DNA of 63,988 bases, filler included, from Rhizaria sp. SCN 62-66 (Eukaryota), in assembly GCA_001724265.1 (NCBI GenBank). It is 3 parts of 3 records of this genome, joined end to end, with 100 filler letters (N's around TTAATTAATTAA, not from the genome) between each part and the next. Parts side by side here need not be neighbours in the genome. Positions count along the whole stretch, not along the records: positions 26,403 to 52,590 come from MEDY01000411.1; 2 more parts are not named here. One strand, 5' to 3'. The notes beneath the pieces are model-generated. The model was given only the letters and a program-made list of their open reading frames with translations. It did no database searches and was not told the DNA's origin. Position numbers and translations under genes: made by a program. Shown one piece after another: positions 12,873-52,590 of this stretch. The stretch's first letter is position 1. Every line of letters begins with the position of its first letter.

Positions 12873-14928
12873 TTACATGCCGCGGCGCTCATGCAAGTCC
12901 CCGTCCTCGCCACCGCCCAGGAGCCCGAGGCCTTCCTCGTGTTCAGGATCGTGCTCATCGCCGTCGTCGTCGTTGCCGCCGCTGCTGCCGCCGGCGAGCA
13001 GCACGGTTTCTTCGTCTTCGCCGGCGCCGCCCGCGCTGTACGACACGGACGCGGTGCGCGAGACAGAGGGCTCGAGCCCGGCCTCGTCGTCGTCGTCCAA
13101 GTGCTCGACGTCCTGGCCCTCAACCGACTTGACGCGCGCGGCGCCTCTGCCGCCGCCTCTGCCGCCCGTGGCGACGTAGACGGAGCCGGAGTCGTAGGCC
13201 TGCATCTGCTCCACGTTGTCAAACATGGGGCGGGTCTTTGTCTCGTAGGGCAGGAAGAAGCATAACGCGCCGGTGATGGTGGACATGATGGCGTAGATCA
13301 GCCCCGCCGTGGTCTTGTCGAGCCCGGTCGCAATAAACGAGGTGATGAACCCGCTGATGCGCGAGAAGGCCGAGTTGAAGCCCAGGCCCGTGGAGCGGGC
13401 GACAGTGGGGTACACCTCCGAGGTGTAGATGTACGTCACCGTGAAGGCCGAGGAAGAACACATGCGGGACACACAGAGGCACACCAGCACCACGGTGTCG
13501 TCGGGCACGAAAGCCAGCACGAAGAGGAAAACAGCCGACAGCAGCAGCAGCAGCCCGATGGTGGCCTTGCGGCCGATCGTGTCGAGCGTGAGCATTGGCA
13601 GGAAGATACCGGGCACTTCGGCGGCGGTCGTGATGAGTGCGGCCGTAAAGAGCGAGCTCGACTGGAAGAACTTGGGCGTGATGAACGCACCGCCGTAGTA
13701 GGTGAACGTGTCGGTGGACCAGACGAGCGCCATGATGAGCGTAGTGGTGAGCAGCGCGGGGTGGAAGAGCGTCGTGAACGACGACCGGTTGTGGTCATAC
13801 TCGGCCTCAAGCACGAGTTCCGTACCTTCGGGGTACTCCTTGCCATTAGCGCGGGCGACGTCGCGCAGCGTCTGCGCGGCCTCGTCAACGCGGCCGTGCA
13901 CCATGAGGTAGCGCGGGGACTCTGGCAGGCAGAAATAGAAGGTCGCGGTGATGAAGGGCAGGATGGCGGAGACGACCATGAGGTGGCGCCATCCGTCGGA
14001 CGAGGCGGGGATGAGCCACCACGCAAGCAGGGCCTCTGTGAAAGCGCCGATGGTCCAGAAGATCTGGTTCAGCAGCAGCATGGTGCCGCGGGAGTCCGAG
14101 GGCGTGAATTCCTGCCACAGCGTGTAGGCCGTGTGGGAGCCGCCGAAGCCGAATCCGACGAAGAAGCGGAAAATGAGAAACGAGACCAGGCTGTGGCTCG
14201 CCGCAGAGGCCATGCCGAACACACCGACAAAGAGCGACGTAATGAGGTAGCAGATGCGGCGGCCGAACTTGTCAGAGACGATGCCCCAAAAGAAAGCACC
14301 GACGAACATACCGATGAAGACGATGCCAGACATGATGCCGTCGGTCCCCGCGGAGAGGTTGAACGCAAGCCTGAAAGGGGGTTAACACACAGAAAATCGT
14401 CGGAAATGATTGGGAGTAAGTCATCGAATGTGTTTGCAAGCAGAAAACAATTGAGACATTGTGATATCACGCGGTTTCGGTGACGTACTTGAGCTCGCGG
14501 AAGAGGAATTCGAGCATCATGATTTCCATGGCGTCGGCGGTCCAGCAAAGACCGCAGAGGAAGAACATCTTAACCTGGTACTTGCCCAGGCCAAAGCGGT
14601 CGATCAGCTCGTCCACCGTCGCTTGCGGACGCTAAGGAGCAGGAGAGAGTCGGTGCGAAAAGAAGAGAGAGAAGAGGTGAGTGTGAGTTGCGTCATTGCA
14701 GAAGCAAGGTGTATCAGGAGAGACAAAGCAACGATGCAAGAGCAAAATAACTCGGGATAGGTTTAATACACCGCTAAAAACTCGGCGGGCGACTGTGTGA
14801 TGTCGATGACCATAGCAACTTGAGACAAAGCGTGAAGACTAGGGTGTCGGGCAACAGCGAGACATGATTGAGTTAAAGGCGGGTAGGAAACGTACGCGGG
14901 AGATCGACAAAGGAGCGCCCACGTCCAT
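12873..14928 (-). CDS. MFS transporter, SV2/SVOP-like, ~557 aa; exons 14928-14896, 14631-14489, 14370-12873
   Basis: TVDELIDRFGLGKYQ...WTADAMEIMML (SVOP-type N-terminus), GIVSDKFGRR (motif A), PESPRYL, DTIGRK, EVYPTVARSTG, PYETK. Both introns have GTACGT donors. The small first exon is less certain. TAA stop. Confidence 0.88.
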
Positions 14929-32484: not shown

Positions 32485-33244
32485 TGGAGAGTTGAGCTGA
32501 GACGATTATGTGGGGCGCAGGAAAGCGAAAGAGCGGCATGAACACGAAAAGGGAAGAGTGGGAGCAAGTGAGTCAAGGTCAGATTACGCAAGCAAAGCGT
32601 GGCTTACAAGTAAAAGACGCCCACTTCCAGTTATTGCAACACATGAAATACTTGAAGTTGCAGATCTATTTTCAACAGCGAGCTAATAGAGTGTCAGGTC
32701 GAGAGAGGGATTGAAGTTTGACATGCTGAGCTGGAAGCTGGGCAGTTCAGCAGCCCGATCAAAGCGCAGCATAGAGCCATTGTTCAAGTGAAATCAAATT
32801 AAAATCAATTCAAATACAGCACTAAATAGTTTAAACATGCAATTATATCCAAAAAGAATCCGGATATGGCGCAGGGTCGCGTTTGCAGAGTTGGAATCAA
32901 GAGCGGGAAGCACCCAGCCGCCTCAAAACTCGTTTGTGGTTGGGCAATTAGTTAGGTCGCCAGTGGGGCGATCTGTCTGGAGAGCGAACGGCTGGCAGTC
33001 GGTCGGCCGCACAAACGCCCAGAACGGCTCCGCGCCGGGGGTCGGGAGTCAGAGACTACAATGTCCCGATGCGACCACTGAATAGCGTTAAAAACTTGGT
33101 ATTAAGGCCGATCCGCTTGTGATTTGTATTTTATTTTTCTAGCTTTGTTCTCGCCGCTCACTTGATTCCTGTGTACTCTTCCCCCCGTGCTTGTCTGATA
33201 CCCGCCGCCCGCGCCGCTCGTCCCGCGCGCCTCAGCACCGAGTT

Positions 33245-34100
33245 ATGTCTAGCGAGGCTCCCGTTAACAACGCCCAGGCCGCTGCTGCCGCCGCCGCCGA
33301 GGAGACGTGCACCGCCGAGTTTGCCACCAAGGTGAACCTCTCCCTCGTCGAGGTCGACGACGGCGAGAAGGATGAGGAGGTCATCCACGCCGACCGCTGC
33401 GCGCTCTACCGCTTCGACGACGAGAGCAAGGAGTGGAAGGAGCGCGCCAAGGGCGATGTTCAGCTCATGAAGCACAAGACCACCGGCAAGTGCCGTGTCG
33501 TTATGCGCCAGGAGAAGACCTTCAAGCTCCGCCTCAACCACTTCGTCCCCGATGAGGCTCTCAAGCCCAACCCCGGCTCCGACAAGGCCTGGTACGTCTC
33601 CCCTCTATTCGATCAACAAGATATCTCAATTAATTATCGTCAAGACACCTTCTAATTCACACATCACTTCATTTTTATCGCAATGCACTCACATCTTCTA
33701 CTTTATTCTTCTCTTTTCCCGCTCACCTATGACCCCTTCTCGTGTTGTTGCTGCTTTGCTCCGCTCTGATCGCACACACACACATAGGACCTGGCGCTGC
33801 TCCGACTCCGTGACGGACTCCGGCGAGCCTGAGGTGTACTCGTTCGCGGTCCGCTTCCGCACCCCCGGCGACGCGCATAACTTCAAGACCAAGTGGGACG
33901 AGGCCCGCCAGCGCAACGTGTGCATCCACAACGATACCAAGTTCGACGAGAGCACCGTCGTCGTCATCGCCAAGAAGGAGGAGGCCGCCAAGCCCACCGA
34001 GGCTGCCAAGCCCGCCGAGGCCGCCGCTGACGCCAAGAAGGAGGAGCCTAAGAAGGAGGAGGAGCCTAAGAAGGAGGAGGCCGCCGCTAAGGCCGAGTAA
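33245..34100 (+). CDS. RANBP1: Ran-binding protein 1 (RanBD), ~219 aa; exons 33245-33591, 33788-34100
   Basis: GEKDEEV...LYRFD...EWKERAKGDV...RVVMRQEKTFKLRLNH...GSDKAW|TW...FAVRF. The GTACGT...TAG intron splits the Trp codon. Confidence 0.93.
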
Positions 34101-34618
34101 GCGCGCTTACCAATGCACTCTCTTTCTCTCTCACTCGATTCTCTCTATCTCTCAATCGCCCTGTTGCCCCACTGTCGCCTATCGCTGCGCCAGTCGTGGG
34201 CGCCACCTGCGGGGGCTGAGACGGGTTGACCGGTAGCGGCCACTGTTGTTTCTCTGTTGATCACTGTATTTGCTATGCCGTACCTGTTGACAGCACCCAC
34301 AAAATCTTACATACTACACTTCTAGGACAAACAAAACGTCGCTTTTTTGTATGCTTCGTGAAATGTCACACTACATAATACAGTCTTGTTTCTATATCAC
34401 ACAATCCTTCATCCCTTATATATCTGAATAGTCTTGTCAACACGGTTGCTCTCTGTGTGTCAGTTCAGATCCAAGTTCCCGCGCATTTGCGCTCACCTTT
34501 AGCACAAGATTTTCCACATGTAGAGTCCGTTGTTCGAAATGCCACTCTGCGCTACGAATTGAAGAGTTAGGTGTCTGATACCTTTTCAAATTATATTTTC
34601 CTCTCATTGCATGTAGAC

Positions 34619-36797
34619 ATGTCGGAAAACCTCGAAAGTGTTCTGCTGGCCAAGGTCCAGAACGGCCGCCAAGCCGTCACCTCCAAATGGCTCTCAGACA
34701 CACAGAAGGTCACCGCCGACGCTGCCAAGCAGGCCATGGATGACGTTTACGCCAAGCACACCTCCACGATGAATGCCGTGTTCCTGGTCACCGGCGTCGC
34801 GTCGGACCTCTCCCTCCGCATCCAGCTCGTCTCGGCGTCCAACCTCGACGCTTACTGTGCCTCGCTCGACCGCGTCGTCTCCAAGCATGTCTACGCCCTC
34901 AGCCCCAAGCCCGCCGCCCCCGCAGCCGCCCCCGTGCCCGCGTCCCCTGTTGCGACGGCGGCCTTGTCGCTCGGCGTGGCGACCGCGGACCAGCCCTCTC
35001 TGCTGAGCGCATGGTCCCTCTCCGTCGTTGAGCAGCGCGCGCAGCACCGCGGCGCCCCCGGCAGCGACATTCTCGCCCCCAACGCGCTCCGCACCAACGC
35101 ACACTCGCGCATCACCAACACCACTGTCACCCGCGCGCGCGGCGCCTTCGCTCTCCCCGTCGTCACTGCCCCGCCGATGAACATCGTGTCCAACGCCTTC
35201 GATGCAGTCGCGGGCTCCGCGCTTGGCGGACGCTCTCAGTCCTCCATCACGGCCGCGTTCGCCAAGAGCACTGCCGCCACTACGGCGGGCGGCAGTCCCG
35301 GCGGCGCGGCCTTGGTTGCTGCCGCTCCCGCCCGCGCATCCTCGGCCTCCGCCGGCGGCCTCAAGGGTATGTTCGCGCTCGCTAGCTCTAGCTCTAGCTC
35401 GACTGCAAGTCCCGCAGCTGTCAAGGCCGACCCGTTCGCGCCATCCAAGGATCCTTTTGCGACTCCCAGCGCCAGCTCTAGCAAGCCATCGAACGCGTTC
35501 ACTCCCATCCCCAAGTCCACCGGCGCGGCGACCTCAGGCGCTCCCGATAGCGGCTTCGGCTTCAAGCTGGGCGACGACCCCTTTGCCAACGATGCGCCGC
35601 TCAACGCGGCCAAGGGCGGCAAGCGCGGCCCCGCGGCGGCAGGCAGCGGCAGCAGCGGCAAGGCGGCGGCCGCGGCCAAGCCCGCCGCGGGCAAGGGCAA
35701 GGGCAAGGGCGGCAAGGACGACATGGGCGACTTCATTGCCCGCGACAGTGACAGCGAGAGCGACAGCGACAGCGACAACAGCAGCAGCAGCAGCGAGGAT
35801 GAGGGCGCGTTCGTGCGCCGCGCGCCCACGACTGCGGACGAGGAGGACGAACACGCCTCCGCGGCGGCCGCGGGCCTCTCCCGTCGCACCGCGGCGGCGA
35901 CGACCGTGGACGACGACGACGCCAACGACTACGATGACCGGCGCGACCGCGCGCGGCTGCAGGAGGAGCAGCGACACAAGGCGGCTGCGCTCGCTGCGGG
36001 CCGGGGCGACAACGACGACGATGATGACATCGGCCGCAAGGGCAAGAACAGCGCGCGCAGCCGCGTCATCTGCGACGATGACGACGATGACGACACGGGC
36101 AGCGGCAAGTCCAAGAAGAAGGTTTCGGTACGTCACAGAACGAGACATTTACGCGGTATAATCACTTTCGAGTTCATGTTACTTTTGATGTTAAATTCTC
36201 TTTGTTTTATATGCTGCATATCCTTTGTGTTGCACATATCCTCATGCTCACGCTTCAATATTTTCTCGGTCTTGTTCTTAGCGCGTGATCATGTCGGACG
36301 AGGCTGAGGAGACCGTGGAGCAGCAGTGGGAGCGCGAGCAGGCGCTAGCGCGCGCAGAGGACGCCGCCGCCGCCGCTGAGGCGCGCGCGCAGTCCACTCT
36401 GGGCCGATTCATCCTCGGTACCGACGGCGCGGCCGGCGGCGGCAGTGACAGCGTGGCGCCCAAGCGCAAGCGCACTGTGGAGCGCGAGGTGACCGTGGTC
36501 AACGAGCGCGGATACCTGGTCACCAAGCTCGAGCGTGTCGAGGTCTCCGACGACGAGGATGACAGCGACAACAGCAAGAGTGCGGCTGCGGCGGTTGAGG
36601 CCAAGAGCGCGGCCGACGCGAGCGCCGGGGCGCGTGCAACTTCGAGATCGACCCCAGCGGCCCCCGCGGCGGCGCCGGCGTCTGCGGCCAAGAAGCCTGC
36701 GCTGCCGGTGCCCGCGGCGGAGGAGAAGAAGGAGCGCAAGACCAAGGAGAAGGTCGTCTCCAAGTCCATCTTCAGCTTCATGACCAAGAAGGAGTGA
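34619..36797 (+). CDS. POLD3: DNA polymerase delta subunit 3 (POLD3/Cdc27/Pol32-like), ~674 aa; exons 34619-36127, 36282-36797
   Basis: N-terminal VTSKWLS...AKQAM...VFLVTG winged-helix-like domain, long disordered linker, VNERGYLVTK (like DEEGYLVT), C-terminal PIP-like KSIFSFMTKKE. Phase-0 GTACGT intron. TGA stop. Confidence 0.82.
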
Positions 36798-37129
36798 GTC
36801 AACTGACTCAATTGTACGAGGTAAATTGGTGCCATCGGAGTTGTTCTATTATCCGTCGGAATTGTTTTGTCAGATTGTTTGTTTTTGATACGGTTAAATA
36901 CATGTTTTATATATTTTTTGTTCTCTTACTCTTCATTCCGTAAAATCAGCGTTGTAAAAGCGTTCGGGATGCCCATAATTCAGAGTGAGAAAATGTTTGT
37001 ATTTGCGAGATACGAATTTGTGGATATTTAATCAGTTGCTATATAACTGCGCATGTACCGAAGCATGCAGACCACATGTAGATTGAACACACGCGGTACT
37101 CTCGGAAGTGACATTTACAATAGCGCGGC

Positions 37130-40100
37130 TTAGACGTCGTATAGTGACCAGTGCGAGCCGCCGAGTAAGAGCAGCCGATCCGAGCCGCGCGTTTGCACGA
37201 CGACAGTCTCGGCGACAGTCTCCGTTGCAGTCTGCGGCAACATGAGGAAGCAGGGCGAGTGGTAGAGAAAGGTGTGACGATCACCGAAAGCAGAACGAGT
37301 GAGCACAAGAAGACAGGAATGAAACTCACAGTACGTGTGATGTTGTTTCATGATATCATCAAAGAGTCGGATTCATGGTTATTAAAGATATTTACGTGAT
37401 GATTAAGAAGACGTACGAGATGCCTGACCGCGGCGAGATTCTGTGACGCGATGGCCCACTCACGGGCCACGCCCTGCGCGTCCACAGTCAGCAGCGCGTT
37501 GCCAGCGCGCACAAAGTGCACTGCGCTCACGGGCTCCGCAGTGTACAGCACGCCGCGCACCTACAGAGCGCAAGAGAAAAGGGGAGCAAATAACAAACAA
37601 CCTTTGTGAGCACACAGACAGATTCAATTCAAATTTCAAAAAGAAGATACACTGGTATACAACAAGAGGACACGACATATTAGCAATTCATAGTCCGCGT
37701 ACCTGTGGGTCAACAAAGAGCGCGAGGTCGTTGGGCGCGCCTCCGCCGGCCATCGCTGCCGCGACAGCCGCGCTGGTTGTGGTGGCCAGGTCGATCAGCC
37801 GCGCCGCGCCATCCGCGCTGCCCACGGCCACGACCACGGCCTCAGCGCCGCGGCCGGAGCTGGCGGCGGCGGCGGCGGCGGCAGCGGCGGGATGGCGGCC
37901 GCTGCCCGCGTTGGCCGCCGAGGAGGCCGCCGCGGCAGCCATGTCGCCCGCAACGCCCGCGCCAGAGAGCAGGGCGGACGAGGCGCGGCGCCACGACGAG
38001 GCGGCCTCGGCGGCCTCGTTGCCGCTGAAAGCGCCGCCGCCGCCGCCGCCGCCGCCACCGCCGCCGCTGAGCTGACTGGCGCGGTTGCCTGCCGTGAGCG
38101 TCGTCGTACGGTTACCGCTCGCGCTGCTGCTGCTGCTGCTGCTGTTGCTGTTGTTGTGGTGGTGGCGGCTGTGGATGGTGATTGCGGCGACGTCAATGCT
38201 AGTGATGGCGACGGGCAACTGCGACATCGTGACCGGCACGGGCGTAATGCCTACGCTGGACCGACTGCCCGCGCCCACCACCACGGGCCCTTCGTCCGCG
38301 CAGTCGCCCTCCTGCGCGCTCTTGGCAGCGCCCGCGGCCGCGGCCAGCGCGGAGGACGACGCCGCGGGGTCAGACAGCACGCCCCAGTCGAAGCCCCCGC
38401 CGCCGCTCAGCGGCGAGTGCGCGTAGTTCGACGGTGATCGCGCGTGGCCTTTGCCTTTCGCAGCGGCACCACCACCGGCGGCTGCAGCGGCGGCGGCGGC
38501 GGCAGCGGAGCGCGGGGAGAGCTGGCTGCTGTTAACGTCGCTGCCGAACCACGACTGCGTGCGCACGTGGCCCTTCTTGCCACCCGCGGCACCGGCAGCG
38601 ATCACACTGACGCTGGGCGTGATGTTGGCGACGCTGCTGCGGCTGTTGCCGTTTTTGGGCGGGCGGTTGAGCCCGAGGCTGACGCCGCCCGCCGCCGACA
38701 GCACGCTGCCACCGGCCCCAGCGCGGGCCCCTGCGGCCGCGCCGCCAGTCGAGCCAGCAGCCGCGGCGGCGGCGGGCTGCAGGCCGGCGTGCGCATGAGC
38801 CTTGAGAGCGGCCAAGTCGCTCCCAACCAGCGCCTGCTGCAGCGAGATCGCGGTGAACCGCCGGATGACGCGCGCAACTGCGATCCACCCAGCAGCGCTG
38901 CTGTTGTTGCTGCTGCTGTTGCTATTGGCGCTCACCGGACTGAGAGTGACCGCAGAACCGGCGCGGGGCGACGTCAGCCGCGCTCCAGCGTTGCTCGCAG
39001 CGCTGTTGCTGTTGGCCGCCGTGGGCGCCATCGCCGAAGGCTTGCGGCTGAGGTCGACGCGCAGCAGAACGCCCGACGCGGTGCCCAGGAACACCTGGCC
39101 CGTGCGCGCGAGCTGGGCCAGGGCCGTCACGCGGTGCCGCAGCCCCAGCCGCGGGTCGCTCAGCGCCAGCCGCGCCCCGCCGCCGCCGCCAGCGCCAGCG
39201 CCGCCACCGCCGCCGGTGTTGCCGAGGCTGGCAAGCCCCACCGCACCGCTTGGCGTCCGCGTCGCGCCGCCACGCGCACCGGCGCCGGCGCTGGGGACTG
39301 CGCCCGCGGCGGCGACGAGGGCGCCCGGGTCGTCGCCGTCGCCGCCCTCGATGGCCGTGACCGCAGACACGGCCCACATCGTCTGCAAGCGCGCCGCGCA
39401 GCCGAGCGCCGTGACTCCCGCGCCCGCGGCGACGGCCACGGCGTTGTGCGCGGGCAGGAACAGACAACGCCACGGCCGCTGTAGCGACTCGACCGTCGCG
39501 CCCGCCACGTGCGAGAGCAGGAACGGCGCGTGCGGCGGCCGGGACACCGGAGGCCACGTGTTAGCGTACGCGGCGGCAGCAGCGGCGGCGGCGGCGAACG
39601 CGGCGGCGGTGGAGGTTGCGGCTGCTGTGGACGCCGCCGGCGCGTTGGTACCCGGCCGCAACAGCGCGCTCGCAGGCACAGCGCCGGAAACACTAGCAGC
39701 AGCGGCGGCGGCAGCGCTGGGAGTTGAAGTGACAGCAGCGGCGGGAGCAGGCGTCGGCGGCACAGCGACGGCGGGCGCGGGCGGGGGGAAAAGCGCCCTG
39801 CGCAGCGCTACAATAGACGCCGTGAGGAACACTGGCGTGCGCCGACCGCCGCCACCGCTGCCCCCGTCGATGTCGCTGCTCGCACTGGCGCTCGTCGCGG
39901 AGGCCGCACCGCTGCTTGCGCCCGCGCCGCCAGAGCTGTAGCTGGCGCTGGCTACGGAGCTCGAGACGAAGGCGGCGACGGAGAGCGTGAGCAGCACCAA
40001 GACGGCGTCACCGTGGCAGGTAACCGCAAACACAAGCGCGCGGCCCGTCTGCGCGCCGCACCAGGCGCCGCACGTCACGCGCACGCTGCTGCTGCTGCAG

Positions 40101-41137
40101 CAGTTGCCGCTAACATTGTTGTTGCTGTTGACGACCCAGCTGCCCGCGGCGCCGGGGGTCGAGGCGTTCGCGGCGCTCTTGGAGCCCGGGGTCGGGGCGG
40201 GCACGGGGGCGAGGCCAACGCGGGTGCTCGCAGCGGCGCCCGCGGCGAAGGGGTTGAAGCCGTGGAGCGAGCGCGCGAGGGAGCCGGCGACGGCGTCGCT
40301 GACGGGACTGCTGTAGTCGTTGGCGTTCGAGCTGGTGGTGTTGTTGTTATTGAAGCCGAAGCCGTCGTCGTCGTCGCTGTCGCCGTCAAGAATGTCGTCG
40401 TCGTCGTCGTCATCGTTGTCATCATCGTCGTCGTTGTCGTCATCGGCGGTCGCGCTCGCGTCGTCGTCATCGTCGTCGTCAATGTCATCATCATCATCAA
40501 GCTCATCGTCATAGTCGTCGTCATCAATGCTTTCACCGCGCTTCGCCTCGTCGTCATCGGCGTCGTCGCCCTCGTTCTCGTCGTCGTTCTCGTCAATCAC
40601 GCCGTCCCGCGCGCGTTGCGCCTTGCCCGCCCGCAGCGCCCGCGCCTGCGCCCGCGCAAGCTCCCTCGCGCGCGCGCCCGCCTTGGCCGCCGCCTTGGCG
40701 TTGACCTTGGCGTGGGCCTTGGCCTGCGCGCGGTGGGCGCGCGCCTTGGCCTTCTTGTCGCGCTCCACGGCCCGCAGCGCGGCGGCAACAGTGAGCGCGC
40801 CCCCGCTGCCGCCGGCGCCGCCGCCCGCGCCGCCCTTGCCGGCGCCGTCGCCACCTCCGGCGCCGGAGGCGTTAGCGGCCCCGCGCGCGGCGCCGTGCGC
40901 GGCGAGGTCGTCGCGGCGCAGCAGGGGCGTGAAGTCAAGCACGGTGTACGCGGCGTCCCAGGCGACGGCGTGGCCAGACTCGGTGATGGCGAGGAACACG
41001 CTGTTGTTGATGTTGGTGACGGCTAGAGGGCGGCCGAGCGGGCAGGACACTTCGCGGTCGTACCGCGCACCGCCATGCAGCGCCTTGCTTGAGCGGGCAA
41101 AGCCGGCGCGGTGCTACTCAAAGGAGTAGAAATCCAT
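37130..41137 (-). CDS. WD40/beta-propeller-like protein with large low-complexity insertions, ~1226 aa; exons 41137-37703, 37560-37417, 37231-37130; in-frame TAG at codon 8
   Basis: Blade-like motifs FLAITESGHAVAWD, VFLGTASGVLLRVD, VAVGSADGAARLID, LLTVDAQGVAREW, WSLYDV*. Two phase-0 GT-AG introns. The nearest upstream in-frame ATG lies 7 codons before a TAG. Confidence 0.72.
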
Positions 41138-41530
41138 CGCTCTCGCGAAAGCCACACACACAGAGGTGGGGCAGGACCAGTGGGTTTGTGACGGTCAAGC
41201 TGAATCTAGAAGGAGTAACGGGCTTGAGGAGTATCGTCTGCCGGGAATACAGAGGTTGGATGCTTTCATGTGAGTGTAGAATTTAAGAGAATACATAAAA
41301 TCGCATGAATATATACAATACCAGAGACATGCGGCTATGAACTCTCAAATGCTCTCAAGGCAGTAGATTTGTTAGAGGTCATGCTCATGTGCTGAAACAG
41401 CGCGCCTGACAGTCGGCAACTTATCTTCAGTCGAAATGACATATCCTGACCGTCAGCGTGATTATGATTAGCGGTAGGCAATTTAAAACTTACATGAAAC
41501 AACTAATATATTATTCGCACTCCAAAACAG

Positions 41531-42668
41531 ATGCTTCGCGGCTCCCTGCGACTGACTCGCGCGCTCTTTGGCGCGCCAGTCCCCGTTCCTGCCGCAGCCA
41601 CAGCTTCGCTCGCCGGCCTCTCGGTCTCTCGTCCTTCCCTGCTCACCCAACCAACCCGCGCGTCTTCCTTCTCACCCAACAGCGAGGGCGGCGACCGCGA
41701 GCGCCCGTCAGTGATGCCCTTCGGCAAGTACCGCGGGCGCCCGCTGGAGGAGATCCCGGCGTCGTACGCGCAGTGGCTGGAGAAGGAGGGCGGGCTCGTC
41801 AAGCGCGAAGGCCTGCGCCGCGCCTTCGCCGAGATGGGCATGCTCAAGGACTTCCATCCCTACGACTACTCTGCGCTGCGCGCGAGCCGGCTGAATCCTT
41901 TCGTGGCCGCGCGCGCGGGCGCCCCGCTCTCCCCCGATCAGATCCCGCCCTTCTGGGGCGCGGGGCTCGCCTTCCACCCGCTCCCGGCCCCCGGCAGCTC
42001 TCTCAGCAGCAGTGACAGCGCCACTGCAGTGGCCGCGAAGGCGAGGGAGCCCGGCGCGTTCGACGTGGACGCCGCCGACCTCGCCCTCAGCGCCCCCAGC
42101 GCCCCCAAGCCTGACCCCGAAGACGGCAACGACTACGACGATGACGACCGCAGCGCTGGCTCGGGCAACGCCGCCGTGAACCCCGCGAGCGCAGCAAGCG
42201 ACAGCAGCGCGGCGGCGGCGGCGGCGATGACCCCCGCCGCATTCGTGCCGATCGAGACTGCGCTGGCGCGCCTCTCCCCGTCCGCGGCCGCCGCGCTGCG
42301 GCCCTTCGCTGCCGTTCCGGCCTCGCTGCCGCGCCACGTCATCTTCCTCGACACCGAGACGGTCTACACCACGGCCATGATGGACCTGGAGAACTCGCAC
42401 ATCGCGCAGCTGGGCGCCGTTGACGGCGCGGGCAATGAGTTCCTGTGCGACGTGCGCCCACCCGTGCCGTTCGCAGCCGTCGCTGCCGCCTCAGACTGGT
42501 TCGCGCGCCACGGCTTCGAGCGCTTCTTCAGCGCCACGAACCCGCGCTTCGCGGACGCGTGGCCGCGCCTCAACAGCTGGCTTTTCTCCCCCGCGCACGG
42601 CCGCGCGCGCTGCGGCGAGCGCGCCACGGCCGACGCCGAAACTGCCCCCGCCACGGCTGAGAGCGCAG

Positions 42669-42699
<31 letters not shown>

Positions 42700-43867
42700 G
42701 TCCGAGCCCGAGCCGCTCGCGGGCGACCCCGCGCTAATCTACAGCATCAACACCGCAGGCACTGGCACTGGCGCTGGCGCGGCGCCGTACCGCGGGCCCG
42801 TGTTCTTGATCGGCCACAACTTAGCGCGGTTCGACATGCCACACATCGACAAGGAGCTGCGCCGTCTCGGCCTCGTCAACTCCGAGTTTAAGGCCGGGCT
42901 CGATGTGCGTGCGCCCGTGGCGGACGCGCGCTCGCAGCTGTTGACGCACGGTGGCGTGCGCATCATCGACACGCTCGACATGCTGCCCGGCTTCACCGCT
43001 GTCGAGCAGTCCCCCGGCCGCGGCGCGTGGGCGCTGACGAACCTGCTCCACGCCTTCACAGGCAGCCCGCCGCGCAACGCGCACGACGCGCTCGACGACG
43101 CGCGCTCGTTGCGCGCGCTTTTTTTTGCCGACAACCTCGCCGGCGCCTTTTTCCGCGCCGAGCTCGCGCGCCAGATTGCTGCCGCCACGCCCGCAGCGGT
43201 CGACTTCGCGCCAGAGCACCTCCCCGCTGTCGCCACGCTTGAGGGCGCGGCGCGCGGGCTGCTCGCGCTCAAGCCCGCGCCGCAGACGTCCGGGCTGGCG
43301 GCCGCCGCGCGGCAGCAGACGCGGCAGGCGCCCGCGGCATCCCTCTTCGGCGGCCGCGGCGCCGGCGCGGCGTTTGAGGCCTCGCACGGGCTCGGCTTCC
43401 GCGCCATGAACGCCGCGCCGCCCGGAGGCTTTCCTGAGGAGCCCAGTAGCGCGGGCAGCTCCAGCTCCAGCTACAGTAGCAGCGGCGTCGGTGGATCGCA
43501 GGGACAGAACGGCTACACGGCCTTTGCGACGTCCAAGAGCGGCAAGGTGTACGCCTACAACAAGGACAAAAGCGCGACTGGCACCGGTGCGCCCGCCAAG
43601 AAGTTAGGCCGCCCGCCTGCATCCAGCTACAACAACAACAGCAGTGGCGCTGCGGCGGCGACGGCGACCGCGGGCGCGGCTGCTGCGGGCTTGTCCGGGC
43701 TGAGGAGCGACGGGCCCGAGGACGGCGACTACGGCTTCGGCGAGGGCTACGACGACCACGGCGACGGGGACAGCGGCAGCAGTGGTCGTGGCTCTGGCGG
43801 CGGTGCCTCGGGACGCATGATCCAGCCTCCCAAGGAGCCCATGAGCGGGGACTTTATCGCAGAGTGA
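41531..43867 (+). CDS. DEDDh 3'-5' exonuclease with a putative mitochondrial presequence and an N-terminal MPFGKY (DUF3820/ExoX-C-like) module
   Basis: ExoI IFLDTET, ExoII IGHNLARFD, ExoIII NAHDALDDARSL. MPFGKYRGRPLEEIPASYAQWL module. Arg/Ser/Leu-rich, acid-free N-terminus. TGA stop. Confidence 0.85.
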
Positions 43868-43890
43868 GAGCAGAGTGAGAGCAGAGTGAG
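43859..43890 (+). repeat. 11-bp tandem repeat (GCAGAGTGAGA x ~3) over the exonuclease stop codon
   Basis: gcagagtgaga gcagagtgaga gcagagtgag, read directly. Confidence 0.9.
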
Positions 43891-44625
43891 CGAGCGCACA
43901 GACTCGACTTACTGGCTAAGAGATAGTGTGCGAGCCAGGTTTAATTGATGTGATAAACACAATTTTCGACACACCTAGGCAGTTGCGACATCATTTTCGG
44001 ATTATCACGCACTAATTAATTAACTATACACCCGCAAGGGTCAGAGTGGAGATGTTTTTGTATTCCAGATTGTGTAAAACGTTCAGTTTGACGCAACTAT
44101 GCGAAAGTGCTTTGAACAGATCTGTGGGGCGAAGCCGTGTTTGATGCAACATAACAACCCGCTCCGGATCACTCCGATGTTCTGAGAGAGCTCTTTGTTG
44201 ATGTTGCGCAACACTATCACAATACACAGTTACTTGCGCGCAACGGTGCACTCAACCACTTGACACTAACACACATCACGAATACTCTTAGCCGTAAAAT
44301 GAGATTTCTGCGCTGAACAATTTCGGTTTATTGTTTAATAATAATAATTTTGTTCAGTAAACACGCCTTTATCTGGATCGATTTCTTGATAAAGATCTTT
44401 AGTTCCGATTCGTTACGCTTGCAGATGTAGCATCAGTATCGTAGGTCTTGAGTTCTCAGCACAACAGCGCATCTCACTGGTTTGTTGACGTAATCCGCCT
44501 TGATACCATTGACACCCATCATATTGCGCCGAACCCATTACCATAATACTACCCCTATTTGAACGCACTCAACCCAAACTTTCCTTTAAAGTTGGGCCGT
44601 GAATGAAGACATGGTTGTTCATGCC

Positions 44626-46983
44626 TCACTTGGACTGGAAGGAGATAAATGAAACAACTATATTCATGCGCGCCTCAAGGCGCTCCAGCACATCAGCGTC
44701 AAATGGCGCCCCATAGTGTTGCGGCATCCATTGAGCAAAGCGCGACATCACGCGGCCGACTGGCACGGCGCCGCGCAGCAGGCTCACCGGGCATGGCTTG
44801 AAGACGATGAACAACGGTGTGTTTGTTGATGGGCTGTGAGGATAAATCGAGCGGGGATACATCAAGACTGTGCCAACGGGGTGTGCTGCGGTTTCATCAA
44901 GGCTAGCAGCCGTGCCAGTCGACGGCGCATGCTCACCGTAGACGAGATCGTGCTCCGGGAGAACCAGAGGCGCAGTGGTACATCCCTAATTTGGGCATGA
45001 GCAATCGTCGAGGGACAAGGCGAAAAACGGCAGCGACGCCGCAGATGAAAGCCCGGGCGGCAGAAAACACGTGTGCAGCCGTTTTCCCAGGCCGTGATTA
45101 TTCGCCGCAACGCGGAAGTACGCGGCGTTGCACGGAAACGCCTCGTCATCAGGCCGGATTACCATGATGTACATGTCTCGCTGCTGCGCCTGTGATCTGG
45201 AAAACCGCATTGAAAACACGACATCTGACGTCATATTCACATCCTTTAGTTCCCCCCGAGCGTCGCACAGGACGCACTCGCGCGCCCTGGCCTGCAAGAA
45301 AGTAAGCGTGGCTGCGGACGGCGGCGCACGGTTACTCTCCATTTGTCCATTGTCGGCGCCATATCGCGGGTAACCGCTCTTTGTCAGACGGGACGCAATG
45401 TACGCATTGAACGCAGTTTGCCAGCTATCGTGCGCCCCTATAAACACACTCGTCTCCGCGAGAGTCTGTCGGCGCGCCTCCTTTGTTGCGTCAGTGATAG
45501 GTGCGATCAAACGCAAGTCGGCGAGCAGTGCGTAGAATTGCATGAACTCGTGCTGTGCGGGACTGCCACCGTCCTCTTGCATGTCCTCCTCATAATGCAG
45601 TAGTTTGACTATTTGCAGCCCGCGACACGCAATGAATTCGGCCACAGAGGGGTTTGGTGGCGCATCGCCGCTGCCGCGCACTGCAGGGCCTGGCGATGTG
45701 TCGCTGGCGTTGGTGCTGATGCTAGCGCTGATCATCACGCGCAGCACGCGCAAGAGCAGCGCCAGATGCTCCATGTTATCCAGCCGGTTTGATACGACGA
45801 AATGCTTCAGAACTGTGCAGCAAATCTTCATCGCACCAGCGGCAAGCAGCTGCTGCGCCTCGTGCGCAACGTCGGTTGCGGCGTTGAGCATGCACTCGAA
45901 CACTAACGTCGTGTTGTCAAGAAGCGACTCAAAGCACATCAGTGGAATCTCGTTAATCTTCTCATTAATGGTGCCAATAATCCGCACGAAATTAGGATCA
46001 CGAGAGAGCCTGCACACAAACACAGGAAATCGGACTGTCAGTGGCGCAAGTACACTCATGAACGCTTCCAGATGCGCTAGAGCGCACATTTGGCTTGCCT
46101 CAAACGAAGACAGAATAAATTCAAAACGATGCTCAGGAAAAGCGCACGTAAACATTTCATCGTCGAATATCTCCACAAACTTTTGCAACAGCATCAGCTT
46201 CTCTGCGTCTGCGAAGTCCAACAGTGTGACAAATTCGCTACTTGCAGCGAAATCCAAGAGATCACTTCGCCAACACCCTTCATTGCTACCACTGCCACAT
46301 GAAAACAAAACAAACAAAGCAGACAACACGATGTGGCTGGTCTTCTCCAAAGACCATTCATAACTCATGAGAATGCCGCGCAGCACGGGAACGAACGCGG
46401 AAACAGAGTCGTAAGAAACCTTAGGTGTGCTCGAGACGACGGATGACAGCAGGTTGCAAGCTGCGGCTTCATCTACAGTAACAGCAACGCCGTTGTCGTC
46501 AACCAGCCCGGAGCAACGCATGTACGCCAGAAGATGATACAATACGACCTGCTTGACCGGAGCGGTGAGGTCCGACTTGCGAGCGAGAGTATGGATGAGC
46601 GAGAGGATACTTGGCGCGATGTCCGCGTGCAAGCGATGAAGAAGAGGGAGAAGCTTTTCAACAATGCCGCACTAAACAAGCCAGTTACACCCATCTTTGC
46701 CCCCTGTTATGCCCCAAAAGAGAACAATCATGAGTTGAAGCCGCGCAATAATAATCTCGTTGTCGGATGTGAGATCGAGCGACTGCAGAAGCAGTGTCAC
46801 GACCCCGCTCTCGCGGATGATATCAGTCGCACTCGAGTAACTCAAGCATGCACGGGTGAGCTCCGTCAAATCGGAGGACTTTGCAGTCAGAGCAGTTGCA
46901 CAGACCACTGCGGCGTGTAGACGGAGAATTGCTCGCGACATCCCCTGATCGGATTGATCATCGTCGAGTGACTGTTGACTCAT
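44626..46983 (-). CDS. ~785-aa armadillo/HEAT-like helical repeat protein containing two in-frame TAG codons
   Basis: ORF-track ORFs 46672-47022, 44986-46632 and 44626-44865 share one frame and are separated only by TAG. ARM-like motifs IIRESGVVTLLLQSL, WLV*CGIVEKLLPLL, LLAAGAMKICCTVL, FIACRGLQIVKLL. Ends at TGA. Confidence 0.75.
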
Positions 46984-47717
46984 GTCGCGACGGTATGAGT
47001 GTGCAACAAGATGCGAGAGCACAGAATTCGATCAAAACCACGATTGTTATGCAGTCACAGCTACGATGACACTTTACGCTGAGCTTTATGGAGTGAAAGG
47101 AGGGAGAATTCGAGATGGTGAAGGAGCAAGCTGAGCGGTGTAAAGGCGAGGTCCACAGCTACAGGTTGACTTTGATAAGACAAATAGAAACGATTGTAGA
47201 TACGCAAAACGGATTTCTCTCTATTACACCATCGAATAATACATCCGACGATGAAATCAAGACATGCCATTGTTCGCAAAATCGCCTTCCCAACTCATCT
47301 CGTCTTCACCACAAACAGGACAAGCCGACAAGAAAAGAGTAGTATTTCAGGTTGTTAAGAATAAATCCACTTTATTATCAGCACGAACGGCATACACATC
47401 TTATATATAAACAAATGAACAACAAACAGTTTGTTGTTAAACGAGAGTGATGCGAAACAGCTGTTTAACTCAACTAACTTCGCAAGGCTGGACCCTATCA
47501 GGCCCATATCTTACACGCGATTACAAACAACAAGCACATTTACTTCTTCAAACAAAGTCATTTCGACAATCACAGTGACAAAATACATTATGTCTCGAAG
47601 TCAGCACGCCATGACGACGAGAGCGCGTCGACACAGCGGAGTAGCACTCTTCGTCGACTTCACAGCCTTCCAAGCCCAAACGAAATTCGCCCCCAGAGCT
47701 TCACCCCCACACGCTCT

Positions 47718-50700
47718 TCACGCCGAGTCGACAAAGCGGACAACGCGCTCGACGAGCCCCAGCGGGCGCAGCGGCGCAAGCGCGGCGGCGGCGAACACGG
47801 GCGCGACTGTGCCCGTAACGTACCACACGGCGTCAAACACCCCGCTGTTGATGCGCACGCCACTGGGCGAGCCGGGCGGGTAGTGGTTCGGCACGGGCGC
47901 GCGCTGCAGCACGTCGAGCAGCAGCTGCGCGAGCGCAAACGACAGCACGGCGCCCGTGGCGGCCACGGAGACGCCCGCGAGCGCGTTCTCGGGGTGCAAG
48001 TACCGCACCGCGAAGGATGTCAGGGTGACGAGCGCAACCCCCGTAAGGCCGGCGACGATGGCGGCGCACGGCAGCACGCCGACGCCGGCGTCCGCGGCCG
48101 TAGGCAGCGTGGTGAGGAAAAGCAGCAGCGCGAAAGCCACCGCGAAGCCCGTGGAGCGGGATCCCGCGGCCTCGGCCCAGCGCGCGCCCAGCAGAGCGCC
48201 AACCAGCAGCGCGCCGACGACGACGCCGAAGCGCACGTCGGCGGCCGCCGGGGTCACGTTGAGCGTGTGCACGAAGAACAGCGGGCCCGCGTTAAGCAGA
48301 CACAGCCCTGGCAGCGGGAGCAGCAGCGCCACGGCGGCGACGACCCACGCCTGCCACGTCGCGCACAGGTCAGACAACGGCAGCGGCGAGAAGTCGCCCT
48401 CGAAGTCGAGCGGCTCGTCGCCGATGTCCAGCACCGCGAACTCGCCGCCACCGGGTACAGCAGCAGCGGCGGCAGCGGCACTAGAAGCGCCCGTCTTGGC
48501 CGCGCCGTCGCTGTCGCCGTGCGCGTTGACCGCGTGCGAGAGCGCGTTGTTGGGCACGGGGTAGAGCGGCGCGGGCGGCGGCGGCAGCGGATAGCGCCGG
48601 CTGCTTCCGCCGTCGTCCTCGTCGTTGTCGTTGAGGTTGGCCAGGCCCAGCTCGAACGCGGTATCATTTGCGTCTGTGGCGTCGTTATTATTGTTGTTGT
48701 TCTTGTTGCTGTTCTGAGTAGCGCTAGAGTCGTTAGGGTGCGCATTGAGTGTCGCGCCGCCAGTCGCGCCTGCAGAAGACGCGGCGTCGGGCGAAGCTGC
48801 GGCCGCGACCGCCGCGAAGGCCGCCGCGGCGTCGGCGCCCTCCTCAGCGGCCGAGTCGTCCTCAAGCTGGTCGTCATAGGCGTCGACGCCACCCTGACCG
48901 CCACTGACGCTGCGCCGACTGCCGCCAGACGTTGCGCCGCGGCCCGTCTGCTGCAGCCGCGCGCGCTGGGGCGTCATCGCAGCGTCGCCGCCGGTGTGAC
49001 GCTGTCCACTGCTGCCGCTGCCGCTGCCGCTGCCGCTGCTGTTCACCGCGCCGTTGCTGTTGCTGTTGCTGTTGTGCGCCTGGTGCGAGCCTGCGCCGCG
49101 GAGGCTGTAGCGCGCGCTGCCCGGCGCCGCGGGCGGCTTGCCGTCCCCACTGGCGGCGTCGGCGGCCTGGCGCTGAAGTGTGGCCGTCACGAGATCCACG
49201 TCGCGCGGGCCGGTAAACCAGCGCGGGTCCACCGCGGGCGGCTGCGGCGTCGTCTGCCGCTCCGTGTCGACTGGGTGCACGGCGCGGTCGCTGCTGACGC
49301 CCACCGCGGTCACCACAACGCCAGTGCCGGACGGACTCGTCACACCGTTGCCGTTGCTGCCGTTTCTACCGCTGCCGTTAGAACCATTGCCATTGCTGCC
49401 GGCCGCGTCGGCGGTGGAGGGACTAGCGCCGGCGGTGTCGGTGGCGCCTGCAAGGCGCTTGAGGGACGCGAGCGTCATGGGCGTGACCTTGCGCACCTTG
49501 GTCAGCAGCGCGATGGCGCCCCGACCCGCCGCGCCGGCGCCCGCGCTCATGGCCGCCGCGACGCCGCTGCCGGGGCCCGCCGCCGTGCGCACGGAAACTC
49601 TCGCGCCGCCGGGAGACAGGGACGAGGCCGAGGAGCGGCCGCGGCCACCGCGGAAGGCCGTCGCGAGCTCCACCTCAACGGCGTCGCGGTGAATGGCCTG
49701 TTGTTGAGATATAACAAAAGACGAGACACGATGTACAAGATGAGAGAGATGGAGGTCAAAATCGATTCATATAGTGGATTACACAAAGTTATTGATACAT
49801 CATATTTTAGAGAGTCTTCATATTAGTCCAATTTAATTGTTGATACATTGTTGTGAGAACATACCTCTTCCTCGGTGGCAAACTCGCCATAGCCGCGGCG
49901 GATGCGCGTCGAAAAGCGGCCCTGCAGCCTCTTACGGAACGCATTGAGCCGCGCGAAGCTGAGCGGAAAGCGCCTGCGCGCGGGCGCCGGCCCGTCCTCG
50001 TCGTCCGCGTGCACGTGGCCGTCGATGCCGTCGGCGGCCGAGTCCACACCACCGTTGTGGTGGAGTCCGTCGCCGTCGGCGTCGCCGTAGCCGCGCCCGG
50101 GCGAGTTGGGCATTGGGTCGTTGCCGTCGCCCGTAGCGCCCGACACGCCACCCGCGCCAACGCCGCCGCGCAGCGACGCGAAGGCCTCAGAGAATATGGA
50201 GTTTGTGCGCATGTGCAGTTTGATCGCCTCCGTCAGCAGCGGCGAGGGCAGCAGGTAGAAGAACCGCAGCGGGAACGCGAAGAGCGCAGCCAGGCACGCG
50301 TGCGCGGCTGAGGCGAGCGGCGCGCCCAGCGCAGTGGCCATGAAGGGCGTCAGCAGGCGGGACAGCCCGGCACCGACGGCGGCCGACACGAGCAACAGCG
50401 CGGTGGTAGTGGCGGGCATGTCTAGGAACCAGGACGCGCTGAGCTGCAGCGCCGACACTAGCGCGGCGCCCAGCGCGATGCCGTAGACGGGCCCCGCGGC
50501 GAGGACGTACGCCGCGGGCGCCGGGGACGCCAGGGCAAAAGCGGCGGCGATGCGGGCCGCGACGAAGAGAAACAGCGCGAGAGTGTAGGTGGCGCGCGGG
50601 GAGAGCGTGCCGCGGAGCGTCAGCGGCAGCGACAGCGCAATGGCGATGCCGCAGAAGAGCGGGCGCAGCGACGCCGCCGTGTTCACGTCGACGGAAGTTA

Positions 50701-51385
50701 AGCCGCGCTGAGCCTTGACGACCGAGGGCGTGTAGGTCGCCTCGAAGCACAGCGAGGGGCCGAGCAGCAGAGCGAAGGCGACGGAGGAGGCCAGGAAGGC
50801 GCAGCGCCAGCGCCACGAGTCGAGAGCCAGCCAGTCGGACTCGCCGTCCACGGCGCCGCCGCCGGCCTCCGCGCCGCCGCCGCCGCGCCCGCCCAGGCCG
50901 TAGCCGGCGCCGGAGGACGAGGACGAGGACGAAGAGGAGCGGGGCTGTGTGCGGGCTGCGAAGATGGCGGCGTCGGCAGCGTCGAGCTCGTCGAACACGT
51001 CGTTGGCGTCCAGCGCCGCGCTCAGCGAGGAAATGTACGCCGCCGTCGCGGTAACGGACGCGGCAGAGGATGGCGCGCCGCCACTGCCGCGGGCGGGAGA
51101 CAGCTGCTGCTGTCCTTGCTGCTGCTGCTGCTATTGCTGCGAGGCTGCGGCGGCTGCGGCTGCGGCGGCGGCCTTGGTGCGAGGGGCGATGATGGTCTCA
51201 ATGTCGTCGTCGTCCTCGTCGCCGATGATGCCGGAGCCGGCGTTGGCGGCGATCGCGCCACTGCTGCTGCTGCCCGCGTTAAGACCGGCTGCGCTAGCAG
51301 CGTTGGCGCTCAGGCCTCGCTCATGGTCGTCGTCGTCGTGCAGCGCGGACGAGCGCAGCGCGGTGAAGCGGGCGGGGCGGGACAT
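47718..51385 (-). CDS. Divergent MFS-like transporter with a very large central loop, ~1166 aa; exons 51385-49865, 49697-47718; in-frame TAG in a poly-Gln tract
   Basis: Two bundles of about six hydrophobic helices. GPVYGIALG...SASWFLD and DLCATWQAW resemble OFA/MCT-type MFS features. Phase-0 GTATGT...CAG intron. TGA stop. Confidence 0.75.
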
Positions 51386-52314
51386 GCGTCAGCAAACAGG
51401 ATGTGTCGGTGCGCAGTCCGCGTTGAGAGAGTTAGGAGGGAAGTGCTTTTGCAATCTCTCTTTCTCGTACTTCTTGGTGGAGCCACAAGAGACGGAGCGA
51501 GGTGGGGGGCGGACGTGCGCCGGGAGAAAAGGAGAGCGGTTCAGTCGGCCGGTGCGTTGCAGTGTATACAACGATGGGTCTACTAGGCCGAAGGCGCGCG
51601 CTGTTGCGGGCCGAGCGAGGGCCGAGCGAGATGTGGGCGCAATGAGTCGCATTTGACGAAGTATCGGATAGAGGAGAGATGAAAGCGAGAAGATTTCAAT
51701 AGAAGACAGGTAAGATACAGAGATTGAGCAAAGCAAGCGGACCGTATATGCCACAAACAATGTACCAGTGCCACGATGATCGTCGTAGCTTCGGTGTCGA
51801 CCGACTTGTGGGCGACGGCGGAGGATGCCGATAACGGAGGCACGTCACTCTCACTCCATGTCTGAATCAGCAGTCGAGTTCGTGGGGTTCCTAAGAGATA
51901 TTGCGCAAATCATATTGATATGGAAATCTGAAAAACACAGCTAGACGAATAGTCGAAGGACACGTGCAGAATACGATAGTGCGTCGTCGATTTATCTTTG
52001 TAAAGTTGTTCAGATTGCCAAGGCCAGCGGTGTCAGCCTTGCGGTCTCCGCGCGCCGGCCGCACGACCAGACGGAACCCGCTCAAAGCCGTTGAGAAACG
52101 GACGATATGTATTTCAAAGCGAAACATTTCAGGTATCAGAGCTTATGGCAGAGATCAGGCAGTAACATGTTGTCCGAAGTGAGAGTGTATTTGTTGACAC
52201 ATTCAATGAGAGATTATCTATCGTATGATGAGGACCGGCGACACCGCCCGGAGGGAGCAACCCCCCGCGACGGGCGCCGGCGGCGGCGAGATCTTTCCGA
52301 CGACGTTGTGCTGC

Positions 52315-52590
52315 TTAGAAGCGGAGCTTCTGGAAGAAGTACTGAACACCAGTGGAGTGCTTGGCGCCACGGGCGATGTACTTGGCGGAGAAGGCACGGC
52401 GGACGCGGGCAACGATCTTGTCGCGGCCAGCACCGGCGTTCTCGACCTTCTGGGGCACAACGATGTCGTTGAGCTTGATGTCGGTGGCCGAGTAGCGGGT
52501 GGGCATGATGTGCGCGGCGTTGATGTTCTTGACGAAGACCTTGATGGAGGACTTGCGCATGATGGTGGTCTTGCTCATGGTCTTGGAGAC
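52315..52590 (-). CDS. RPL27: 60S ribosomal protein L27 (eL27), C-terminal part cut by the contig end
   Basis: KSSIKVFVKNINAAHIMPTRYS...YFFQKLRF* is the characteristic eL27 C-terminus. Confidence 0.93.
   Translation of the reverse strand, partial: VSKTMSKTTIMRKSSIKVFVKNINAAHIMPTRYSATDIKLNDIVVPQKVENAGAGRDKIVARVRRAFSAKYIARGAKHSTGVQYFFQKLRF

Follow-up and report, generated by a model that had tools for sequence, protein, structure and literature searches.

In-frame TAG codons in a GC-rich eukaryotic assembly and in a related organism: a case for UAG as a probable sense codon

Are the TAG triplets that interrupt otherwise open genes of a GC-rich eukaryote stop codons, or are they read as an amino acid? 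The question is raised by a stretch of DNA of 63,988 nucleotides, filler included, from Rhizaria sp. SCN 62-66 (assembly GCA_001724265.1). This stretch, hereafter called the window, is made of three contigs with artificial N...TTAATTAATTAA...N spacers between them. On the minus strand of the middle contig (MEDY01000411.1, positions 26,403 to 52,590), four in-frame TAGs had been described at 41116-41114, 44988-44986, 46674-46672 and 51133-51131 (TAG no. 1, 2, 3 and 4, respectively), and the original prediction was that UAG is a sense codon, probably for Gln, with UAA and UGA kept as stops. The four TAGs are indeed found at these positions, in frames that are open between TAA/TGA stops. They are real and lie in true sense frames with coding-like sequence on both sides, as indicated by homology, by the continuity of splicing and by the presence of far fewer TAGs than on the opposite strand. 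The decoding of TAG as sense is the best explanation that we can offer, and we regard it as probable. It has been strengthened by 16 loci of a related organism, while several of the arguments first quoted for it did not hold.

Gene 2 and its family in a related organism

Contigs of four other runs (X3-X6) were aligned to positions 33000-52590 of the window. No difference was found at any of the four TAGs in these contigs, of which the listed pieces span three, so three of the four TAGs recur in independent contigs, from other runs and studies. TAG no. 1 (41114-41116) is unchanged in X3 record 5 and X4 record 12. X3 record 7 and X5 record 21 are colinear across TAG no. 2 (44986-44988) with 0 differences, and TAG no. 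3 (46672-46674) is kept in X4 record 15 despite single-nucleotide polymorphisms at 46665 and 46651, i.e. 7 and 21 bases away. TAG no. 4 (51131-51133) is not covered by any of the listed pieces of X3-X6; these end at 51206 and 51221, beside a repeat.

Two of the TAGs belong to the same gene, gene 2 (44626-46983, minus strand), a single exon of 785 codons (coding 44629-46983, stop TGA 44626-44628). TAG no. 3 is located in the N-terminal helical-repeat part of the product, and TAG no. 2 in an indel-variable loop inside a conserved C-terminal domain. The protein database contains only the gene's own 548-residue piece from between both TAGs (P0001, for which the longest recorded contig has 233,573 bases) and two clusters of relatives, one of which has a full-length, 862-residue member (P0004); the family is lineage-restricted. 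Gene 2 shares 36-43% identity with P0004 and with P0003, and it is colinear with them across both TAGs with no frameshift, TAG no. 3 facing E in P0004 and G in P0003. In the alignment of the C-terminal domain, all 27 invariant columns are 3' of TAG no. 2. When columns invariant in at least six other members are considered, the window copy keeps 12/13 of them upstream and 33/36 downstream of that TAG. Thus, gene 2 lacks the marks of a pseudogene, as its internal stops are TAGs only, its frame is not shifted and its invariant residues are kept.

An AlphaFold model of the C-terminal domain (predicted local distance difference test score 73, predicted template-modelling score 0.76) places strands on both sides of TAG no. 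2. Nearly all matches of the domain in the PDB are cyclophilins, and they are weak (template-modelling scores of 0.35-0.43 by query, best E = 9e-4). The domain is thus predicted to have a cyclophilin-like fold, in which TAG no. 2 would fall between strands of one barrel. No terminal repeats marking a mobile element were found around gene 2, and a scan of viral contigs with the C-terminal domain of the family returned no relative.

A metagenome scan with the gene 2 alignment yielded 16 loci (L001-L016), all from a single metagenome, with 31-58% identity and 44-62% GC. They are paralogues in one related organism, with L003 coding for P0003. Fourteen family frames bounded by TAA or TGA contain 16 TAGs, and the 12 best of them contain 14 in 6,173 codons. 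In the paralogue-aligned stretches of copies without frameshifts, there are 11 TAGs, one TAA (L001:457) and no TGA. These 11 TAGs comprise nine sites plus columns 42 and 86 of L009; a TAG common to L007 and L009 at alignment column 7 was left out because it lies at the edge of the open reading frame (ORF) and may be an acceptor. At an expected TAG share of 0.48, the probability of at least 11 TAGs out of 12 is 0.002. The frameshifted copies, L013 and L016, contain one TAA, two TGAs and no TAG, and the stop types of the two sets of copies differ (Fisher P = 0.009). No frameshift is present in ~6,000 codons of the non-frameshifted copies, the sequences of L005, L007 and L011 stay conserved past TAGs close to their C-termini, and dN/dS (the ratio of non-synonymous to synonymous substitution rates) is 0.39-0.61 for five close paralogues.

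The gene 2 family is multi-copy and fast-evolving in this relative, and its members are diverse in architecture. Some have, at the N-terminus, a B-box zinc finger that is weak (E = 1e-4) and does not reach the Pfam cut-off; these members (L007:361-3060, L009:8258-10657) also harbour an Ala-rich coiled region and a C-terminal domain of the cyclophilin fold. This layout recalls the TRIM-Cyp restriction factors, whereas the window member has a helical-repeat N-terminus instead of the B-box. In one copy (L011:2-958), a complete ubiquitin domain (PF00240, E = 1.4e-24) follows in the same frame, past a Ser/Asp-rich linker and two TAGs. The locus L006 also contains, at 1833-2880 on the minus strand, a histidine/phenylalanine ammonia-lyase-like gene with an AT-rich intron (CAG/GTATGC...CTCAG) in the style of those of the window, which supports the kinship of both organisms.

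A number of observations weigh against sense decoding of UAG. Under the standard code, the TAGs would be nonsense mutations, gene 2 and most family copies would be pseudogenes, and the two other genes with TAGs (gene 4 and the gene at 37130-41137, described below) would be null alleles or have wrongly modelled 5' ends. Of random nonsense mutations, a share of 0.70-0.73 in GC-rich exons and of ~50% in gene 2 is expected to be TAG. As ~70% of nonsense mutations would be TAG anyway, the four TAGs out of four in the window are not significant (P ~0.13). That only TAG interrupts genes, initially taken as support, loses its value, since nonsense mutation in GC3-rich sequence (GC3, GC content at third codon positions) and antisense frames give the same picture. 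TAG is unevenly spread: the other genes of the window have 0 TAG in ~14,000 codons, and in the loci of the relative TAGs occur solely in a multi-copy family, some copies of which are frameshifted. The genes neighbouring L009 and L015 have 0 TAG in ~3,958 codons, with ~9 expected at the family rate (P = 1e-4), a pattern expected if decaying copies alone carried TAG. Degenerate copies do exist in the family: the frame is shifted in L013 and L016 and interrupted by a TAA in L001.

Gene 2 itself also provides arguments of this kind. Its GC3 is 0.62, versus 0.8-0.9 for its neighbours. In run X4, codon 10 (46956) shows a CAA>TAA change, which points to a true start at the ATG of codon 15 or else to relaxed constraint on the gene. 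Of the five differences recorded in gene 2, four are in X4, and that at 44786 is also seen in X3 and X6; two of the five are synonymous and three non-synonymous, a split that does not support strong constraint. In alignments, the TAG sites correspond to variable positions rather than to a single conserved residue. X5, which provides one of the contigs over TAG no. 2, is a poly-A RNA library, but this contig does not prove that the TAG is in a mature mRNA, because X5 also holds intronic sequence (its record 24 reaches 49771, 74 bases inside the intron of gene 4). Finally, ARAGORN predicted 0 tRNA genes of any kind in the window and the 16 relative loci; there is likewise no eRF1 gene within the window.

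We nevertheless consider it unlikely that the standard code applies. It leaves unexplained the 11 TAGs against a single TAA or TGA in non-frameshifted copies that are free of frameshifts over ~6,000 codons, the dN/dS values of the family and the 33 of 36 invariant residues kept 3' of TAG no. 2. It also requires that two large, GC-rich, multi-exon genes each suffered a null mutation close to the start while remaining otherwise perfect, and that none of the 15 gene ends modelled in the window (see below) is a TAG by chance. In contrast, a sense TAG accounts jointly for the conservation of gene 2, the two large genes, the TAG bias of the relative and the 15 stops other than TAG. The rarity and patchiness of TAG are the remaining puzzle. 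They fit a codon that was recently captured or is poorly decoded, and they would also fit pseudogenes or a leaky stop.

Two large genes, introns and gene ends

TAG no. 1 is codon 8 of a gene for a WD-like, low-complexity protein (37130-41137, minus strand), counted from the ATG at 41137-41135. This gene has exons at 41137-37703, 37560-37417 and 37231-37133, introns at 37702-37561 (GTACGC..GTAG) and 37416-37232 (GTACGT..GCAG), and a TAA stop at 37132-37130. It starts with ATG GAT TTC TAC TCC TTT GAG TAG CAC. The only usable ATG is 7 codons 5' of the TAG, and there is none for ~600 codons on its 3' side. A search for homologues with the first 120 residues (N-terminus MDFYSFE-TAG-HRAGF) returned no match. 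We looked upstream for a donor of the type described below that would give an in-phase exon and found none, the candidate donors being out of phase or devoid of G at position 5. Two alternative gene starts were rejected. A mini-exon ATGTCTCTG followed by GTATTG near 41330 would use a donor without the position-5 G, and a donor GTAAGT at 41493 has an upstream frame that lacks an ATG and abuts the start of the divergent neighbour gene, whose ATG is at 41531.

TAG no. 4 (51131-51133) is codon 85, counted from the ATG at 51385, of gene 4 (47718-51385, minus strand), which has ~1,166 codons and codes for a multi-pass membrane protein. Exon 1 (51385-49865) and exon 2 (49697-47721) are separated by an intron at 49864-49698 (GTATGT..ACAG), and the gene ends with TGA 47718-47720. 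As had been noted, this TAG sits within a run of CAG and CAA (CAG CAA TAG CAG CAG CAG CAG CAA). GC3 is 0.83 over the 84 codons before it and 0.88 over the 100 codons after it. The first downstream ATG is ~270 codons further on, within a hydrophobic region; thus, there is no usable downstream start. The TAG comes with no intron signal, and gene 4 is otherwise uninterrupted. A search with exon 1 of gene 4 found only the window's own product in the database, a 391-residue piece (P0007) that starts after TAG no. 4.

Introns deserve attention here, as they can mimic in-frame stops. The organism does splice, since a cDNA contig of X6 (record 25) joins 33590 to 33787. The corresponding intron, in the RanBP1-like gene (33592-33787, plus strand, GTACGT...CATAG), is the only one shown experimentally, and seven others were predicted from GTAYG donors, AT-rich bodies and phase-matched exons. 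The signature used was a GTACG[T/C/G] or GTATGT donor, a body of 142-196 bases with 29-43% GC, and matching phases. The eight donors share an A at position 3 and a G at position 5, and five of the eight introns end with TAG, which makes it the most frequent acceptor. One of the introns, at 6175-6332 on the minus strand, has an acceptor TAG (6177-6175) that mimics an in-frame TAG between ORF 9929-6333 and ORF 6174-4891, which it joins in phase 0. Given its donor, AT-rich body and phase, this TAG was discarded as a codon. Another apparently in-frame TAG, at 34568-34570 on the plus strand, was set aside because it sits in a 5' untranslated region.

The commonness of TAG acceptors could mean that the four TAGs themselves belong to unrecognised introns that are spliced out, and errors of assembly or consensus could be an alternative source of artefact. 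TAG no. 4 is within a CAG/GCC repeat where short-read contigs break, and intron-related stops had been mistaken for gene ends in the first reading of this DNA. We consider an artefact of either kind very improbable. None of the four TAGs follows a GTAYG donor and an AT-rich body of ~140-200 bases between phased exons. TAG no. 2, 3 and 4 do not fit as acceptors, since homology or GC3-rich coding sequence adjoins their 5' sides. Homologues align up to and across TAG no. 2 and 3, which leaves no room for an intron, and the DNA around TAG no. 4 is ~70% GC and GC3-periodic, in contrast with the 29-43% GC of the introns. As for errors, three TAGs were reproduced in other runs, and P0007, which begins after TAG no. 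4, is on record from five contigs.

Re-modelling of the genes with these introns changed the census of gene ends. It now comprises 15 ends, namely nine TAA, six TGA and no TAG. The earlier figures (12 TAA and 5 TGA out of 17) had mixed genuine stops with others located within introns, and the absence of TAG stood. With a normal TAG share of 20% or 25%, the probability of this absence is 0.035 or 0.013, respectively, for what is a small sample; it is compatible with a code in which TAG is an amino acid and does not prove it. Similarly, the three interrupted frames do remain open after their TAGs, as stated, but two of the three ends quoted for them, TGA 37688-37690 and TAA 49823-49825, fall inside introns. 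The true stops are TAA 37130-37132 for the gene with TAG no. 1 and TGA 47718-47720 for gene 4. It is also correct that no in-frame TAA or TGA interrupts the modelled genes, and this is in part a product of how ORFs are delimited.

Antisense frames of GC3-rich genes constitute a second source of misleading TAGs. Three such frames, long and devoid of TAA and TGA, contain 12 (12793-14382, plus strand, antisense to a transporter gene), 9 (41941-43908, minus strand) and 5 TAGs (49857-50708, plus strand). They arise from NNC-TAY codon pairs of the sense strand, which read TAG on the other strand. Such frames are a trap for scans that look for TAG-only interruptions in GC-rich genomes.

The probable residue at UAG and a possible mechanism

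We computed a naive-Bayes residue score over 15 aligned TAG sites. As a control, it was applied to 15 random sites where the residue is known, and the correct residue came out in at least 98% of draws. Glu ties with Gln (difference of 0.06 log units), and the other scores are -2.3 for Lys, -3.2 for Ser, -9.5 for Trp, -10.2 for Tyr and -12.8 for Leu. As the TAG sites are variable and hydrophilic, the score is better at excluding Leu, Tyr and Trp than at picking a winner. Of the seven informative columns among close paralogues, three have CAG or CAA opposite TAG, and the others have D, A/S, F/H/L and S/K. The poly-Gln context of TAG no. 4 weakly favours Gln. Thus, the residue is most likely Gln or Glu, and Leu, Tyr and Trp are disfavoured. 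The assignment of UAG to Gln, as first proposed, therefore stands as one of the two best, and it is not separable from that to Glu.

Gln is also a classical near-cognate readthrough residue for UAG, which brings in the idea that UAG is a leaky terminator, read by near-cognate or low-level suppressor tRNAs, with readthrough programmed or tolerated in a subset of genes. Besides the residue, this would agree with TAG being extremely rare (four in ~17,000 codons of the window, ~0.02%), unevenly spread (four sites in three of ~15 genes) and placed at variable positions. We find a leaky terminator quite improbable, as no sampled gene ends at TAG (0/15) and the other usual readthrough residues, Tyr and Trp, are a poor match to the aligned columns. 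Nor do the four sites have a readthrough context in common, the bases 3' of TAG no. 1 to 4 being all different (CAC, GGA, TGC and CAG, respectively).

If UAG is indeed a sense codon, it would be a rare one, found mainly where the sequence evolves fast or is of low complexity, and it is absent from the terminators observed; the conserved genes available in the window (ROK kinase, MFS transporter and RanBP1) have no in-frame TAG. It may be decoded by a tRNA with a CUA anticodon, which could derive from a Gln(CUG) or a Glu(CUC) tRNA, and the eRF1 of the organism would be expected to recognise UAG poorly. We infer from the DNA that ribosomes read through the TAGs, that Gln or Glu is the residue most likely inserted there and that the same decoding is valid genome-wide.

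Setting of the genes and relation to known UAG codes

The window has 50-75% GC (2-kb windows) and very long ORFs with a GC3 of ~0.8-0.9. Near-identical sequence is present in metagenome contigs labelled bioreactor, wastewater and activated-sludge, and four runs, which come from three studies, each contain at least half of the sampled words; one of these runs may be the source. Runs that share few words (X6-X10) played no part in this inference of habitat. Pfam matches are limited to a ROK kinase, an MFS sugar transporter, a weak Cdc27-like match and a few marginal ones, most genes being blank. A RanBP1-like gene stands out clearly when the PDB is searched by sequence, with similar scores against yeast Yrb1 and human RanBP2 chains. 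In the Atlas, look-alikes of the transporter are scattered across several phyla, and those of gene 2 are hypothetical proteins of Basidiomycota (0.90-0.93), which we take as a lead only. An Rfam scan of the window at gathering thresholds gave 0 matches.

Several features of the neighbouring genes are worth recording. At 10720-14381, a ROK-family sugar kinase gene (plus strand) adjoins the MFS sugar transporter gene (minus strand). This pair looks bacterial, yet it has eukaryotic introns and the GC3 of the host; the kinase gene has an intron at 11959-12133 (plus strand, GTACGT...CTAG) and ends with TAA 12284-12286. At 33306-33550, run X4 has a second RanBP1-like sequence with 15 differences over ~250 bases, 12 of them synonymous, a hint that a sibling strain or species is present there. 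The gene at 41531-43864 (plus strand) begins with MLRGSLRLTRALFGAPVPVP, which resembles a mitochondrial presequence, and it shares a divergent promoter region of 394 bases with the gene that contains TAG no. 1.

Searches of the full text of papers, supplements aside, turned up no published account of this organism, nor of any UAG code in a eukaryote from wastewater. According to extracts of PMC5304391, UAG alone is a sense codon in the fornicate Iotanema spirale (Gln) and in the sainouroid rhizarian exLh (Leu). The list of such lineages given with the original prediction was out of date, since extracts of PMC11687900 add phyllopharyngean ciliates, where UAA is preferred as a stop and UAG has come to encode Leu and, on two occasions, Gln. 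Among the closest parallels is I. spirale, for which the excerpted text (PMC5304391) describes UAG alone as sense, UAA and UGA as stops and a predicted tRNA with a CUA anticodon, as is proposed here; NCBI table 15 matches this code. In that species, however, the inference was based on 96 in-frame UAGs in well-aligned blocks, including hyperconserved positions (extracts of PMC5304391). In contrast, we have four TAGs in ~17,000 codons, none of them at a conserved position, Gln is inseparable from Glu, and the organism is GC-rich and found in wastewater-type metagenomes.

The case of exLh resembles the present one in that, as far as the extracts tell, it concerns a protist other than a ciliate, recovered from mixed sequence data, with UAG alone reassigned. 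There, 82 of 86 hyperconserved UAG positions correspond to Leu (extracts of PMC5304391), the residue that scores -12.8 log units here. According to the same extracts, UAG is abundant in conserved genes of both exLh and I. spirale, unlike here. The ciliates are described in extracts of PMC11687900 as having widespread sense UAG, whereas TAG is used sparingly here, with 50-75% GC and introns of 142-196 bases. Finally, in the UAR = Glu codes of the Blastocrithidia type, the residue is also one of our two best; on the partial information considered, however, those codes reassign UAA and UGA too, whereas UAA and UGA end all 15 genes in the window.

The consequences for annotation are direct. Gene callers that use the standard code split or truncate such genes, as shown by the 548-residue piece of gene 2 and the 391-residue piece of gene 4, and the annotation of this organism in metagenomes from wastewater is affected. 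Extracts of PMC5304391 and PMC11687900 indicate that nuclear reassignment of UAG alone is known in a handful of lineages; if the present case is true, a GC-rich, non-ciliate lineage would represent an independent origin. We tentatively put forward a more specific scenario, which we see as possible rather than probable: two related, uncultured eukaryotic microbes would be at an early stage of UAG codon capture, in which UAG, already lost as a terminator, returns to genes as an infrequent codon for Gln or Glu. It would do so first in fast-evolving, weakly expressed genes, such as those of the TRIM-like/cyclophilin-fold family, and in low-complexity tracts, with long conserved genes avoiding it. 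Should the weak Basidiomycota lead hold as well, this would be the first case of a stop codon reassigned in the nuclear genome of a fungus. If the rarity of UAG is real, these organisms would offer a natural intermediate stage on which to test the codon-capture model against the ambiguous-intermediate model.

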